Shown here: positions 1,902-42,271 of the stretch, piece after piece | How positions within the stretch are numbered: position 1 is the first letter of the stretch | How the letters are laid out: the number at the start of each line of letters is the position of its first letter | Sequence record: PP328843.1 | Direction: 5' to 3' (one strand) | From: Escherichia phage 215Ecol030PP | DNA: 64,000 nt | Program-made: the position numbers and the translations under genes | The notes under the pieces: model-generated | Told to the model about the DNA's origin: nothing | The model's database searches: none | Seen by the model: the letters and a program-made list of their open reading frames with translations, nothing else

Positions 1902-3584
1902 TTAAACCATTACAGTAAATCGACCAACTTTCTTCATTTGAAGATGCTGACCATATTCTTGTGGGTCATGGTCTTTATGCGAAATTATAAAAACGTTAGT
2001 GTTTTTCATTGAATTTATAATATTAGCTACACCTTTAATACCTTCGGCATCAAATGACCCATCAAACACTTCATCAAGAATTAATGTACTAATACTAACA
2101 CCAGATACGATAGAAGCAATATCACGCCAAGTAAATAAAAGAGCAATATCAATTCTTGCTTTTTCACCTTCACTAAATGAAGCATAACTAAAATCTTCAC
2201 GACCACGGGATTTAATTGTCTCATTAAATTCTTCATCTAATGTAAACACATAATCCGCTTCCATTATTTTAAGATAATGGTTAATCTGCTTATTAAATAA
2301 TGGAATGTACTTTTTAATAATAGCACCTTTAATACCAGAATCTTTGAGCATATCAGTCAAAATTCCTCGGTGGTATTTTTCCATTACTAAATTAGTTTTT
2401 GTCTTAACAATTTTATCAAGTTCTTCTTGAAGCAGTGCTATTTCATCAGCATGGTCAATAAACTCAGAAGATGCTTTTTCTATAGCCGCTTTAACCTTTT
2501 TGGCTTTATCTACCGTCGTGATTAGAGATTGCTTTTTATTGCGAATATCATTTGCCAACGACTGTTGGGTTTTAATATTATCTCGGTATTCATCAACAAG
2601 AACTTTTAAATTATCACGGTGTGTTGAAAGCTGTTCAAACGAATGCGTGCATTCAGAAACTTTATCTTTAATTTTAGAAACAACTTTATCACCGGAACTT
2701 AATTGTGACAAACAGGTTGGACATAATCCACCTTCGTGATACATATTAATGACTTTATTATACGAGTCAATTTTTGATTTAATTAAAAATGCTTCTTGGC
2801 CGATTTTATTAAATGCATCAGTCGGGTCTTCATCCAAAACAATATTAACTAATCTTTCATTAGCTTCTTCTATTTCCGATTTTAGCGTTCTAGCTTCTTT
2901 TGCCAAATCATCATACATATTTTGAAGACGAGTAAGGTTGTCACCCGTTAATTTTTTCTGGCGTTCAACGTTATCATTATATATTTTAATTTGTTGGATA
3001 ATACTATCTTTTTTAACATCAAGCACTTGGTTCTGCGAATTTAATTCGCGTATTAGTGCTTTATTAAGCTTATCCATTTCAGCTAATGTTCCTACCTCAA
3101 GCAGGTCTTCCACAAGCTTTCTTCGCGCAGGGGTCGACAAACCCATGAAAGGGGTATACCCTGCTGTACCAAGGACAACAATCTGCTTGAAACTGGCATA
3201 TGACATTCCGATAAGCTGTTCAAATTCTGCTTGGAAATCTTTACTGCTGGCAGATTCATTAAGACGTGTACCGTTAACGGTGATTTCGAAAACGTTTGGT
3301 TTTTGTCCTCTTTTGATATAATACTTTTTCTCATCATATTCCATCCACAGTTCAACTAAAAGTTCTTTCTTATTTGTGCTGTTTATTAATTGGCCTTTCT
3401 TTACATCACGAAATGGCTTGCCAAAAAGCCCAAATGTGATGGCTTCTAGCATAGTAGACTTACCACCGCCATTTCGTCCAGTAATAAGAGTTTTTTGAAC
3501 CTTATCTAATTGAATGTCAATCCCATTTTGACCAACTGACATTATATTTTTATATTTTACTCTATTAAGTTTAAAATTCTTCAC
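1902..3584 (-). CDS. 46: recombination endonuclease subunit gp46 (Rad50/SbcC-like ATPase)
   Basis: 560-aa ORF; N-terminal Walker A GRNGGGKST, long central coiled coil, C-terminal LILDEVFDGSFD signature/Walker B region; length equals T4 gp46. Confidence 0.9.
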   Translation of the reverse strand: MKNFKLNRVKYKNIMSVGQNGIDIQLDKVQKTLITGRNGGGKSTMLEAITFGLFGKPFRDVKKGQLINSTNKKELLVELWMEYDEKKYYIKRGQKPNVFEITVNGTRLNESASSKDFQAEFEQLIGMSYASFKQIVVLGTAGYTPFMGLSTPARRKLVEDLLEVGTLAEMDKLNKALIRELNSQNQVLDVKKDSIIQQIKIYNDNVERQKKLTGDNLTRLQNMYDDLAKEARTLKSEIEEANERLVNIVLDEDPTDAFNKIGQEAFLIKSKIDSYNKVINMYHEGGLCPTCLSQLSSGDKVVSKIKDKVSECTHSFEQLSTHRDNLKVLVDEYRDNIKTQQSLANDIRNKKQSLITTVDKAKKVKAAIEKASSEFIDHADEIALLQEELDKIVKTKTNLVMEKYHRGILTDMLKDSGIKGAIIKKYIPLFNKQINHYLKIMEADYVFTLDEEFNETIKSRGREDFSYASFSEGEKARIDIALLFTWRDIASIVSGVSISTLILDEVFDGSFDAEGIKGVANIINSMKNTNVFIISHKDHDPQEYGQHLQMKKVGRFTVMV

Positions 3585-3844
3585 AAAAGATTCCTTTTAA
3601 TGTATCTTTTAGACCATTCTATCATATCATCATAATCTAAAAAGTATTCATCAAATTCAGCCATGCAAACAACACCTTGTGCTGCTTTTGATGTGATATA
3701 AATTATTCCAACATATCTAGAATCTTCTTCGGTATAATCAATGTTTGCTATGAATTCATCATTAATGTCAAATGTCGAAAACTTCACAGTATGCATCCTT
3801 AATACAAGATACGGCCATATCTCGCAATGATTTAGGTGTGTCAT
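3581..3844 (-). CDS. hypothetical protein (46.1-like position); true start may be internal
   Basis: 87-aa ORF overlapping the next ORF by 77 nt; an internal Met would give about 71 aa. Confidence 0.45.
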   Translation of the reverse strand: MTHLNHCEIWPYLVLRMHTVKFSTFDINDEFIANIDYTEEDSRYVGIIYITSKAAQGVVCMAEFDEYFLDYDDMIEWSKRYIKRNLL

Positions 3845-33552: not shown

Positions 33553-33649
33553 TTCTGTATTTACCCATTACCGCACTTGGGCTCGACCTTATTACAGGTT
33601 GGCGGGAATCCCTCACAGAATCATGAGGTCCAGGTTATTCCCATGTTAT

Positions 33650-34066
33650 TTAAATGTAAATATTTTTGCCGTAATACTTATACCAGTGTGGCTTCATTAA
33701 AATTTTTTCATCGAGTCGTTGTTGACTCAACTTAATAGCTGATTTACATGGATTATAATCATTTTTCCATTCTACTGGAATATCGCTGATGTCAGGAACT
33801 TCAGTATCTTTTATACTGAACCCGCGTTTTAAGCATTCCGTTATAATGTCCGATTGACGCTTTCGCAAAAATTCTAACTTATCGTAAAAGAAAGTAACAT
33901 GACCAGAACCTAAAATAAATTTAGAAGATATTTTAAAATCTTTAACGCGCTTACCGTTTGCCACATGCTTACGAACTATACCAAAAACACGCGGCAATTC
34001 ACGGTATTCTGCGATTAAATGTTGATCAGCAAGTTCAGATACTAAAGTCAAATTAATACGAGTCAT
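33650..34066 (-). CDS. denV: endonuclease V (pyrimidine-dimer DNA glycosylase) DenV
   Basis: 138-aa [32 protein letters not shown]...WYKYYGK; matches T4 DenV with a few substitutions. Confidence 0.9.
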
Positions 34067-34091
34067 TTTATCCCTCCAAGTAACTGTGAAT

Positions 34092-34121
34092 ATACTATCA
34101 CAGTTTTAGGAGAAAGTAAAC
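34092..34121 (-). promoter_or_regulatory. T4-type early promoter upstream of denV
   Basis: Minus strand GTTTAC, 18-nt spacer, TGATAGTAT. Confidence 0.5.
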
Positions 34122-34125
34122 AACT

Positions 34126-34656
<531 letters not shown>

Positions 34657-37824: not shown

Positions 37825-38100
37825 TTATTTCATATTATTGAAATATTCTTCTGCGATTTCATCGTTATCATGGTAAACTTTAGAAGACAGTTTAACATAA
37901 CCTTCAGCAGTGAACATGTTAATCACAACCTTTACAGTATACCACTGACCATCTTCATTACCCATTACTGCGTAAGTTTCAAACATCGGATGATCAGGAC
38001 CGATAACTTTAATATCATTCACTGTACGACCAAAATCTTCTGAAACGCATTTCATAAAGAAGTTGAACAGTTCGCCGTAATTATCCATTTCGTTCTCCAA
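37825..38100 (-). CDS. hypothetical protein (91 aa)
   Basis: ORF downstream of an early promoter. Confidence 0.5.
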   Translation of the reverse strand: MENEMDNYGELFNFFMKCVSEDFGRTVNDIKVIGPDHPMFETYAVMGNEDGQWYTVKVVINMFTAEGYVKLSSKVYHDNDEIAEEYFNNMK

Positions 38101-38131: not shown

Positions 38132-38161
38132 ATAGTACCATAGAAGAACAGGGATGTAAAC
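38132..38161 (-). promoter_or_regulatory. T4-type early promoter
   Basis: Minus strand GTTTAC, 18-nt spacer, TACTAT. Confidence 0.55.
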
Positions 38162-38295
38162 CGTTTTGTGAAAAATTTTTTAAAAAGTTTTGGGGGAATT
38201 CTAGGGCAGGGAGGGGCAATTAAAGGATAGGATAATATATTATAAAGGATAGAAACTAAATGATGCCTAGAGAGGCCCGGAAAGGCCTAGATACC

Positions 38296-38322
38296 AAAAA
38301 GCCCCAACCTTTTGGTCGGGGC
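38296..38322 (-). terminator. intrinsic terminator (twin copy 1)
   Basis: Minus-strand GCCCCGACC-AAAA-GGUUGGGGC then UUUUU. Confidence 0.7.
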
Positions 38323-38330
38323 TAAGAATG

Positions 38331-38804
38331 TTATTTGATTTGTTTAGCAGACCAAATGCGGTCTTTAATAATTTTTTGGATGTCTTCAACATACTCAAGA
38401 GAGTGAACATGTGGATTATCTTTGAAACTATAAGCACGGGCTAACTTTTGGCCTTCGGTTTTGATTACTAAAAGCTCTTTAAGGATAGCTTCATATTTGG
38501 AGATAATTCCTTTAACAATATTTTTCTCTTGTGTGACTTTAGGATCTGCTTTAGGAGCAGGTTTACCTGAAGCCTTTGCAAAAGCAGCTCCAGTAGCAAC
38601 TAAACTTTTCCAAGCCATACTAACTGCATTCCCTGTAAATCCTTCGGCTTTCATATCACGAGCAAATTGGAATCGTGATTCATCGGAAGCATCTTTATAG
38701 GAATATTTACCCGCGGCAATGGCAGCTTTTGCAACAGCTTGAATTTCAGTGCTAGATGCTTCATTTAACACCGCTTCATTTAAAAATTGAGTATATGATT
38801 TCAT
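38331..38804 (-). CDS. internal-protein-like protein with capsid-targeting-sequence-like N-terminus (157 aa)
   Basis: Start MKSYTQFLNEA... resembles the T4 internal-protein leader MKTYQEFIAE; RBS AGGAAA; late promoter immediately upstream; flanked by twin terminators. Confidence 0.5.
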   Translation of the reverse strand: MKSYTQFLNEAVLNEASSTEIQAVAKAAIAAGKYSYKDASDESRFQFARDMKAEGFTGNAVSMAWKSLVATGAAFAKASGKPAPKADPKVTQEKNIVKGIISKYEAILKELLVIKTEGQKLARAYSFKDNPHVHSLEYVEDIQKIIKDRIWSAKQIK

Positions 38805-38842
38805 CTTATTTCCTGTTTTAATTCGGGGTTTTAATATACTAA

Positions 38843-38850
38843 TATTTATA
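38843..38850 (-). promoter_or_regulatory. late promoter (TATAAATA) for the internal-protein-like gene
   Basis: Plus-strand tatttata about 40 nt upstream of the ATG at 38804. Confidence 0.55.
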
Positions 38851-38852
38851 CT

Positions 38853-38879
38853 AAAAAGCCCCAACCTTTCGGTCGGGGC
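38853..38879 (-). terminator. intrinsic terminator (twin copy 2)
   Basis: Minus-strand GCCCCGACC-GAAA-GGUUGGGGC then UUUUU; differs from copy 1 by one loop base. Confidence 0.7.
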
Positions 38880-38886
38880 TAAGCCT

Positions 38887-39196
38887 TGCGGCAACCTTGT
38901 CGGGGTTCCACCTGCTAAGGCAAGTGTTTGTACGAAACGCCGGGATTCGAACCCGGTTATTAAGCAGTTGACGCTACTCAATATTTTTAAAAGGCCATAT
39001 CTCGACCATATCCGAACGTTCCGTCAAAAACGCTACTCGGCTTATGGCAAAGATATTTCCTCGAATCGATAATTCGGTGCGCCGTTTCTGCTGTGATATA
39101 AGGGGGCATTAACAAAACATAAAGATTTATTAATGCCAGTCCTTAAACAGGGAACATCAGTCCGACGACTTGCCGGTAGCGACCCGGCTTCTTGTC
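38887..39196 (-). ncRNA. structured RNA region downstream of tRNA-Arg (positional equivalent of the T4 small stable RNAs)
   Basis: About 310 nt non-coding between tRNA-Arg and the terminator; tRNA-like T-arm CCGGG-TTCGAAT-CCCGG at 38941..38956 but no full cloverleaf. Confidence 0.35.
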
Positions 39197-39272
39197 TGGT
39201 CGAGGCAGTAGGGATCGAACCTACGACCCAGGACTTAGAAGGTCCTTGCTCTTCCTTCTGAGCTATGCCCCG
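39197..39272 (-). tRNA. tRNA-Arg (anticodon UCU)
   Basis: Hand-folded cloverleaf: acceptor CGGGGCA/TGCCTCG, anticodon loop CTTCTAA, T-loop TTCGATC, CCA encoded. Confidence 0.8.
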
Positions 39273-39728: not shown

Positions 39729-40214
39729 TTATTTTATGTAATATTTATTTAAAAACTTTCTAGCTTGAGTATGGCTAACATTTATAGCGTTTGCATAATT
39801 TTTAATAAAACCTCGTTCATCCATATTAAAATTTTCTAATATTTTTAATCGTCTAGTTATCTCATCTTGACTTAAGGTACTTGCATTATTTTTAGAAATT
39901 TTTTCTAAGGACTGTGCCGAGTGTTTTCGACCATTAAAATTAAAATTTTTAGATTTTGGAGGAAATCTAGCATTTAATCTCGCATCTTTTGTATTTTGAT
40001 TATTAGTTGCGCAATATATGTTATTTAATGAATATGGTCCTTTATCGCCGAAACGGCACATGCAGTATTCATGACCCTTTCTTCCACGCTTATCATAATT
40101 TCCCGTTGATTTCCACCAATGCAGCCATTCATCAAAAGTTAAATTCCATTCAATGTTTCTACGTATAGCAGAATTCCGCTGAGAAATATATTTTGCATAA
40201 TCTTCTTTCATCAC
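39729..40214 (-). CDS. hypothetical basic protein inside the tRNA cluster (segB position), possible DNA-binding/nuclease-like; family unresolved
   Basis: 161-aa ORF; no GIY-YIG or HNH motif recognised; Cys/His cluster GHEYCMCRFGDKGPYSLNNIYC and C-terminal helix-turn-helix-like tail. Confidence 0.45.
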   Translation of the reverse strand: MMKEDYAKYISQRNSAIRRNIEWNLTFDEWLHWWKSTGNYDKRGRKGHEYCMCRFGDKGPYSLNNIYCATNNQNTKDARLNARFPPKSKNFNFNGRKHSAQSLEKISKNNASTLSQDEITRRLKILENFNMDERGFIKNYANAINVSHTQARKFLNKYYIK

Positions 40215-41061: not shown

Positions 41062-41460
41062 TCAGCCTTCATCAACAATAGTGTGAGTATTAGCATTTAC
41101 GATTTGCCACCAATCAAAGCGATTAGAATCCATCGGTTTGTTTTCATTTTCTTTGATAATGTCACGGAGTTCATCTTCAGAGAATGCTTTAGCAATTAAA
41201 TCGGTATACCCACCACGGGGATAATAATTATCACCTGCAAACAAAAGGAAATTTACCTTCCCGGAAGCAACATATGCTTCCTTAGGATACTTGTTTCCTG
41301 CGTGGTCAACCACTTCAATATAACGGTAAGGAATATCGGTTCTTTCAACCCATTGCCATGCCGCCGCAGGGGAATCGAAAGCATCTACACCTAAACGATT
41401 ATCTTCATCTTTAGACGGATTATTTTCGTAATCCGCATATACATAATATTCAACGTTCAT
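41062..41460 (-). CDS. hypothetical protein (132 aa)
   Basis: ORF. Confidence 0.5.
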   Translation of the reverse strand: MNVEYYVYADYENNPSKDEDNRLGVDAFDSPAAAWQWVERTDIPYRYIEVVDHAGNKYPKEAYVASGKVNFLLFAGDNYYPRGGYTDLIAKAFSEDELRDIIKENENKPMDSNRFDWWQIVNANTHTIVDEG

Positions 41461-41703: not shown

Positions 41704-41937
41704 TTATTTTTTACGAAAAATTGATTTATTTTCTGCTGCCCATTTTTCAATAACTGCAGCAGGACCAGTAACAACAATTTTATCACCGTAATCTTCTGCG
41801 GCGAGTTGACCGAAATTATCTAATGCATCACGAAGAACTCCATGAGGCATTTCACCCATTTTATCTTTCTTGCCAGTGTAAATAAACTCAACTTTTACAT
41901 CAGCAGTTTCAGCAATAAATTCTTGGTAAGTTTTCAT
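41704..41937 (-). CDS. internal protein with canonical capsid-targeting sequence (77 aa precursor)
   Basis: Begins MKTYQEFIAE, the T4 internal-protein leader, followed by a small acidic protein; adjacent to 57B as ipI is in T4. Confidence 0.65.
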   Translation of the reverse strand: MKTYQEFIAETADVKVEFIYTGKKDKMGEMPHGVLRDALDNFGQLAAEDYGDKIVVTGPAAVIEKWAAENKSIFRKK

Positions 41938-42013: not shown

Positions 42014-42271
42014 TTATTTTAAATCTTCTAATCGTTTCTTCATCTTAGAGCCATTTTTAGCAATTTCTCCTGCATCGGAGCATAATGCTAAAAGTGCTTT
42101 AACTTTAGTTTGGTCTCCTTTAAAAGATGAAGGATCGACCGCAGCAGCAAGTTCTTTAATACGAGAGAAAAGACGCTCAGCTTCAGCTAAAGCCATTCCA
42201 AGCTTTACTTCCATACCGTGGGAAGATTCAGTGATAGTAGTTTTTGTAGCAAACTCTTTGAAAGTTTTCAT
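42014..42271 (-). CDS. second internal-protein-like protein with variant capsid-targeting sequence (85 aa)
   Basis: Begins MKTFKEFATK, a variant of MKTYQEFIAE. Confidence 0.5.
   Translation of the reverse strand: MKTFKEFATKTTITESSHGMEVKLGMALAEAERLFSRIKELAAAVDPSSFKGDQTKVKALLALCSDAGEIAKNGSKMKKRLEDLK

Follow-up and report, generated by a model that had tools for sequence, protein, structure and literature searches.

What does a single gene encode when it lies between two almost identical transcription terminators in a T4-like phage, and what would such a cassette do for its carrier? The gene in question stands on the minus strand, at 38331..38804, of a 64,000-nucleotide stretch of Escherichia phage 215Ecol030PP (PP328843.1), which is referred to below as the window. 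We propose that it encodes an unannotated internal protein (IP) of the T4 type, that is, a protein packaged in the head and injected, that it occupies a third IP locus between rnaC and e.8, and that its role is likely counter-defence; to this reading as a whole we give a probability of roughly 0.6. Its parts differ in strength: that the protein is packaged in the head is highly probable, and a specific anti-defence role, if the protein is packaged, is by analogy rather likely. As a possible new counter-defence protein delivered by injection, and missing from T2, T4 and T6, the product is a good candidate, though an unproven one.

An earlier note on this DNA had described the locus as an internal-protein-like gene bracketed by twin terminators with its own late promoter, and its coordinates, hairpin sequences, protein start, protein length (157 amino acids) and promoter motif were all correct. 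The two near-identical hairpins are present on the minus strand and form part of a 36-nt direct repeat, whose copies are identical at 34 of 36 positions and spaced by 557 bp. Read 5' to 3' on that strand, the end of rnaC is followed by a hairpin and U-run, TATAAATA, AGGA, ATG, an open reading frame (ORF) of 157 codons, a second hairpin and U-run, and the e.8 promoter region. From sequence and RNA folding, the upstream repeat copy spans 38848..38883 and contains the hairpin AGCCCCGACC-GAAA-GGTTGGGGCT plus U-run at 38880..38857 (stem-loop 38857-38880). The downstream copy spans 38291..38326, with AGCCCCGACC-AAAA-GGTTGGGGCT plus U-run at 38323..38300 (stem-loop 38300-38323). Predicted RNA energies are -24.9 kcal/mol for the upstream and -19.7 kcal/mol for the downstream hairpin (z = -5.1 and -3.3), and none of 200 shuffled controls was as stable as either. 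A motif scan placed TATAAATA, the T4 late-promoter consensus, at 38843..38850, 2 nt past the U-run and 38 nt ahead of the ATG at 38804; the Shine-Dalgarno sequence AGGA (38811..38814) lies 6 nt ahead of the same ATG. The coding sequence, for a protein of the family phrog_2280 beginning MKSYTQFLNEAVLNEASS..., is supported by ORF calling, homologues and purifying selection, with a ratio of nonsynonymous to synonymous polymorphism (pN/pS) of 0.05-0.20.

The nature of the product is suggested by its first codons. Its start, MKSYTQFLNEA, had been likened to the T4 leader MKTYQEFIAE, and the likeness holds at the residues that experiments have mapped as determinants of capsid targeting in T4. There, IPII and IPIII start MKTYQEFIAE/A, and IPI starts MKTFKEFTST...ITE/A. 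Amber-suppression analysis of the IPIII sequence assigned targeting mainly to residues 4 and 7 and processing to residues 8 and 10, and the prohead protease gp21 cuts after L/I-X-E (PMC9026906). In the window protein, which reads MKSYTQFLNE/AVLNE/ASS, Y4, F7, L8 and E10 all match the IPIII mutational map. Leader codons 1-15 (38760..38804) contain two L-x-E sites, L8-N9-E10 followed by A11 and L13-N14-E15 followed by A16. The determinants shared with T4 IPI, IPII and IPIII are Y or F at position 4, F at 7, L or I at 8, E at 10 and then a small residue. Family members have Y or F at position 4 and, without exception, F at position 7, and homologues keep the gp21 motif.

Relatives were collected by a word search of 5.8 billion proteins and an exhaustive profile search of 1.84 billion representatives, each of which returned only 13 entries, single proteins or clusters; these lack a name or are labelled 'hypothetical', and those with a name come from T4-like phages. 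Every relative found has the leader M-x-x-[YF]-x-x-F-[LV]-x-E, while the body diverges greatly (profile E-values of the weakest relatives are about 1e-4), and insertions and deletions cluster immediately after the leader. A relaxed pattern, MK[STAK][YF]xx[FLIVM][ILVM]x[EQ], matched twice when the window was translated in all six frames, versus 0.01 times in shuffles, and the other leader-bearing proteins of the window, of T4 and of Yersinia phage fD1 all belong to families annotated as internal virion proteins.

Behind the leader, the predicted layout is a three-helix N-domain (about residues 18-71), a PAPKADPK linker and a C-terminal helical hairpin (88-154), and the conserved motifs of the N-domain are AGKYSY, ESRFQFARD and AWKS. 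In the AlphaFold model, residues 4-15 have a predicted local distance difference test score below 50 and precede the folded helical body. The mature protein would be a lysine-rich polypeptide of 15.5-16.1 kDa with an isoelectric point (pI) of 9.5, compared with 9.0-9.65 for T4 IPI*, IPII and IPIII. Its resemblance to the T4 IPs extends further, as these are likewise small, basic, non-essential and variable among T-even phages, and are encoded by single genes with their own regulatory flanks (PMC12373910; PMC9026906). The gene studied here is absent from T2, T4, T6, RB3 and RB10 and present in 511 phage records by tblastn. It differs from the T4 IPs in its locus, in its flank, which combines an intrinsic terminator and TATAAATA rather than early-promoter/stem-loop elements, and in its mature part, which resembles neither IPI* nor any other protein in sequence or fold. 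A Pfam search of the 157-residue protein gave only a sub-threshold match to Shikimate_dh_N, an NCBIfam search gave nothing, and PHROGs lists phrog_2280 as 'unknown function'.

Virion data exist for a close homologue. At the same site, phage fD1 carries g140, whose product Gp140 is identical to the window protein at 155 of 157 residues. Gp140 was listed as particle-associated at the strict threshold in liquid chromatography-tandem mass spectrometry (LC-MS/MS) of ultracentrifuge-purified virions (public dataset PXD026812); in all, 113 of 277 (41%) phage proteins were scored as particle-associated (PMC8309999, Table S3). The other two leader-bearing proteins of fD1, g129 and g146, also passed the strict threshold, while the products of the adjacent genes g138 and g139 (e.8) were absent from the virion LC-MS/MS results (PMC8309999, Table S3). 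This listing is consistent with packaging without proving it.

We also compared the locus with that of related phages, in which, as the earlier note had anticipated, the gene shows a presence/absence polymorphism bounded by the hairpin. In T4, a single hairpin separates e.8 from rnaC, and the interval is without a gene. When the window is aligned to T4, both flanks align and the sole difference is a clean 557-bp segment consisting of the gene and one hairpin copy. Across records, which were sampled for proportions and not for exact totals, four states of the locus were found. T4, T2, T6, RB3 and RB10 lack any cargo and keep just one hairpin at the site (empty state); most records carry the 157-residue gene (state A) in a configuration of ~855 bp; RB14 has an unrelated 187-residue ORF, RB14ORF136c, at the same site (state B); and JB75, fPS-90 and others have A and then B in tandem, with a hairpin closing each (state A+B). 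The junctions of all four states fall at the end of the hairpin U-run and read ...GGGGCTTTTTAG/TATAAATA before A, ...TTTTTAG/TTTGAATC before B and ...TTTTTGG/TATCTAGG on the e.8 side. One ORF between two copies of a motif, with a single copy at the empty site, is what the alignment of window and T4 and the junctions of RB14 and JB75 display, and the idea of a self-contained one-gene module edged by a repeated hairpin is borne out by the sequence and by the comparison with relatives.

Homologues of A fall into identity tiers of at least 95%, about 75% and below 60%. RB27, JK45 and KpV477, a Jiaodavirus of Klebsiella, carry A where the window does, with tRNA genes on its upstream side and the e.8/e.6 block on its downstream side, and because the same position is held in these phages A is probably old at the rnaC-e.8 site. 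With homologues at this position in another genus, the comparison favours loss over gain: most likely, T2, T4 and T6 lost the cassette by recombination between terminator copies, rather than the window phage gaining it. The KpV477 homologue itself (locus L006, 1995-2700) has an in-frame stop after 78 codons, beyond which the frame continues, and is probably a pseudogene or the product of a sequencing error; KP01, which is related to KpV477, has an intact form of 177 residues. In phage Aplg8 (locus L001, about 3330-3800) the 157-residue gene is present at 94.9% identity by tblastn and unannotated, next to an annotated terminator. A 2.9-kb Logan contig encodes a chimeric protein of 94 residues (P0013), whose N-terminal portion comes from a homologue of the window ORF 41062-41460 and whose end consists of the final ~28 residues of the 157-residue family, with the junction ...IIKEN/PHAHSLEYVEDIQKIIKDRIWSAKQIK; the family part corresponds to window 38331-38420, and the chimera implies a natural deletion spanning the whole tRNA/rnaC region.

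The second cargo, B (the RB14ORF136c / RB69ORF148c-149c family; 2724-3287 in locus L008 and 2714-3277 in locus L009), begins MKTYAEFLTEA and has nothing else in common with A by BLASTP or hhalign. Homology of A and B, hinted at by their common assignment to phrog_2280, was therefore unsupported beyond the leader. B resembles A in its locus, leader type, similar size and pI, PHROG and the terminator hairpin after the gene; it differs in that the resemblance is confined to the leader, in having GATAAATA in the place of an exact TATAAATA, and in the stem of its downstream hairpin, CCCTATC/GATAGGG. tblastn found B in 165 records, and in all but one of them its protein identity is 95-99%. RB69 is a far more divergent phage; its B, split into two ORFs (148c/149c), is still 97.6% identical. 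Such identity across records suggests that B spread into the site horizontally and recently.

Could the twin hairpins be a mere tandem duplication of the operon terminator, with no role in mobility, while the gene is ancestral and the polymorphism reflects simple deletions? We regard this as possible though doubtful. It accords with the syntenic location downstream of tRNA genes in Tequatrovirus and Jiaodavirus and with the hairpins of KpV477 and loci L015, L016 and L018, in which the two flanking structures are unlike each other, so that twin identity is lineage-specific. Nor is there consistent co-variation of the two hairpins within genomes: concerted evolution was rejected as genomes with non-matching pairs occur among 13 related loci. 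However, a deletion between repeats is itself hairpin-mediated recombination, all four locus states have their junctions at the U-run, and the near-identity of B even in RB69 points to recent horizontal spread. In the model we prefer, homologous recombination between the copies of the terminator would account for both gain and loss of the cassette.

The late-promoter motif had been noticed right after the upstream terminator, and its position there (38843-38850) is conserved in related phages: of 13 related loci that were compared, 8 have the exact junction of hairpin, U-run and TATAAATA, those of RB27 and KpV477 among them. A promoter scan upstream of the gene gave no sigma-70-like site, and the 5' untranslated region of 38 nt is predicted to be unstructured. 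Judged from these comparisons, the significance of the motif rests on its conserved place directly after the hairpin and not on the occurrence of TATAAATA as such. Given this conserved position, the lack of a sigma-70-like site and a flank unlike that of the classical IP genes, we predict that the cassette is shielded from early/middle transcription of the tRNA genes and that its expression is confined to the late phase, as would suit a component of the prohead.

Overall, this suggests a model in which the upstream terminator would stop early and middle transcription arriving from the tRNA operon, and the gene would be transcribed only late, from its own TATAAATA. The leader would then dock the protein onto the prohead scaffolding core, and gp21, cutting after L-N-E, would take off the first 10 or 15 residues; the remaining basic protein, of ~15.5-16 kDa, would be injected with the DNA. 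Its most likely job would be to neutralise a specific host defence at DNA entry, by analogy with Ip1, Ip2 and Ip3. Each of these blocks one distinct GmrSD-type type IV restriction enzyme (PMC12373910), although they have nothing but the leader in common (PMC12373910; PMC3012670). As each of the three blocks one GmrSD enzyme, inhibition of a specific host defence is by analogy the most likely role here, too.

Alternatively, the protein might be packaged but have no specific anti-defence target, acting instead as a generic basic DNA-associated internal protein, in charge neutralisation, condensation or help with ejection, redundantly with other IPs. Such redundancy would explain why the gene can be lost, and the pI of 9.5, the lysine-rich composition, the contacts of internal-protein lysines with DNA phosphates in T4 heads (PMC3012670), the strong purifying rather than diversifying selection and the syntenic position across genera all fit it. 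We nevertheless consider it unlikely, because all three T4 IPs, long thought dispensable, proved to be specific GmrSD inhibitors (PMC12373910) and because the locus is a hot spot of presence/absence and cargo swapping, as is typical of accessory counter-defence genes. More improbable still is that the gene makes a late cytoplasmic accessory protein that is not packaged, with its first ~30 nt and flanks kept as recombination homology or as a shared translation-initiation region: A and B are indeed alike only in the first 10-11 codons, and the proteomic support from fD1 is unspecific, but the leader is conserved as amino acids at functionally mapped positions even in relatives too divergent for nucleotide homology, its bearers in the window, T4 and fD1 are all of annotated internal-virion families, and its predicted disorder, its L-x-E followed by a small residue and the indel-prone spacer behind it are as expected of a cleaved propeptide.

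Several observations weigh against a packaged, late-expressed counter-defence protein. By itself, TATAAATA is no commoner than chance (13 in the window versus 11 expected), and some relatives, which make up most of the non-exact loci among the 13, have only 7/8 variants of it. The classical IP genes of T4, fD1 and the window are preceded by TTTACA-stem-loop-(-10) elements of the promoter-early stem-loop (PeSL) type, unlike the cassette. The fD1 proteome is unspecific, as it comprised 672 host proteins besides the 113 of 277 phage proteins, DenV and deoxynucleoside monophosphate kinase among them (PMC8309999). Proteins engaged in an arms race often show diversifying selection, of which the low pN/pS gives no hint, and the searches revealed no fold, Pfam, NCBIfam or PDB relative that would point to any activity.

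How does the cassette relate to known mobile modules of T4-like phages? Polymorphic IP loci of T-even phages, with variable leader-bearing ORFs between conserved stem-loop regulatory sequences and proposed shuffling by recombination, are described in Repoila et al. (1994, EMBO J 13:4181) as cited in PMC12373910 and PMC3012670. The present locus is alike in its variable leader-bearing cargos between stem-loop repeats; it differs, as far as those loci are described in the citing papers, in that rnaC-e.8 would be a third locus, empty in T2, T4 and T6. PeSL cassettes are excised by recombination between motifs (Arbiol et al. 2010, PMC2839356; Comeau et al. 2014, PMC4122927). They, too, place a single ORFan between two copies of a repeated motif with a terminator stem-loop, with one motif and no ORF in a related genome. 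In contrast, the repeat of our cassette is a GC-rich terminator hairpin and U-run only, without a sigma-70 early promoter, and the late-type TATAAATA adjoins it from outside.

It is already known that leader-bearing internal proteins occur in polymorphic loci and are shuffled via repeated regulatory elements. The locus appears to be new, as a third one beside ipI and ipII/ipIII in the accessible literature, although the six polymerase chain reaction loci of Repoila et al. might include the region; a 2025 Nature Communications paper still refers to 'the two Ip loci' (PMC12373910). Also apparently new are cargo families A and B and the terminator-plus-late-promoter flank. A and B are 'hypothetical' in every sampled database row and of 'unknown function' in PHROGs; other IP families are annotated. 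A literature search by the ORF names of RB32, RB14 and RB69 found no paper, and the absence of the cassette from T2, T4 and T6 is plausibly why the locus was missed.

Some 500 T4-like phages with sequenced genomes, including many candidates for therapy, carry family A, and some 165 carry cargo B; the model phages have neither. Since all three T4 IPs have been shown to be specific type IV restriction inhibitors that enter with the DNA (PMC12373910), each new leader-bearing family is a concrete anti-defence candidate. The terminator and late-promoter design also shows that, in T4-like phages, repeated regulatory elements other than early-promoter (PeSL) motifs can serve for the shuffling of genes. 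Only tentatively do we extend this to the rnaC-e.8 interval as a third IP hot spot, strictly late and terminator-insulated, in which both cargos would be injected inhibitors of defences outside the reach of Ip1-3, be it new GmrSD clades or other immunity at the DNA-entry stage. If true, this would help to explain differences in host range between wild Tequatrovirus isolates and the laboratory T-evens.

The window belongs to Tequatrovirus; its best match is phage Ozark (97.4% identity over 2.2 kb), and ~1,100 phage records match. From annotated relatives and T4, the gene order on the minus strand is 57B - ipI - tRNA.4/.3/.2 - tRNA cluster - rnaD - rnaC - [cassette] - e.8 - e.7 ... nudE - e - denV. 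Immediately upstream by transcription lies rnaC (species 1 RNA; 38931..39069), preceded by rnaD (about 39076-39196), both placed by alignment at 96% to the annotated T4 genes; tRNA calling put the adjacent tRNA-Arg at 39197-39272. Given this order, the upstream terminator is the one that ends the tRNA-rnaD-rnaC operon. Its homologue in T4 is the lone hairpin behind rnaC, which T4 record X03016 annotates as a potential stem-loop/terminator. No Rfam family matched in the intergenic stretches or over rnaC/rnaD. The next gene downstream is the e.8 homologue (37825..38088, minus strand; comparison with annotated relatives and T4), with a sigma-70-like promoter, TTTACA..TGnTACTAT, at 38160..38132 by promoter scan.

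The earlier note had set the cassette apart from the T4 ipII/ipIII site on the ground that the denV-e interval is only about 60 bp here; we measured 59 bp (34067-34125), with no ipII/ipIII in it, between denV (33650-34066) and the lysozyme gene e (34126-34620, minus strand, ATG at 34620). That note did not give the location between rnaC and e.8, from which the classical ipI locus is only ~3 kb away. The cassette lies outside both classical IP loci (57B-tRNA.4 and denV-e), which is a departure from a historical, not a mechanistic, feature of the class. Two more leader-bearing genes stand in the ipI locus on the minus strand: one at 41704..41937 encodes 77 residues beginning MKTYQEFIAETADV... 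(phrog_8111, 'internal virion protein'), and another at 42014..42271 encodes 85 residues beginning MKTFKEFATKTTITE... (phrog_3499, 'internal head protein'). The flanks of this tandem pair are TTTACA-stem-loop-(-10) elements of the PeSL type, unlike those of the cassette. In fD1 the leader-bearing gene g129 (MKTYQEFITEAAINS...) lies between denV and vs.8, where the window has none (33553-33649).

Directly upstream of e, two TATAAATA motifs stand 13 bp apart, start to start (34634-34641 and 34647-34654, minus strand). The pair matches the known arrangement of the T4 e late promoters, and its recovery was the positive control of the motif scan.

Within the tRNA cluster, between tRNA-Met/Ile2(CAT) and tRNA-Ser, the window has an ORF of 161 residues on the minus strand (39729-40214), which belongs to phrog_16521, is without an assigned function and gave no Pfam or NCBIfam match. 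Ozark, Aplg8, RB14 and RB27 have a tRNA-Thr in its place, and no tRNA-Thr was called in the cluster of the window. The arrangement recalls that of segB, by which the tRNA cluster of T4 is broken up, and the ORF may have been inserted by a homing-type event.

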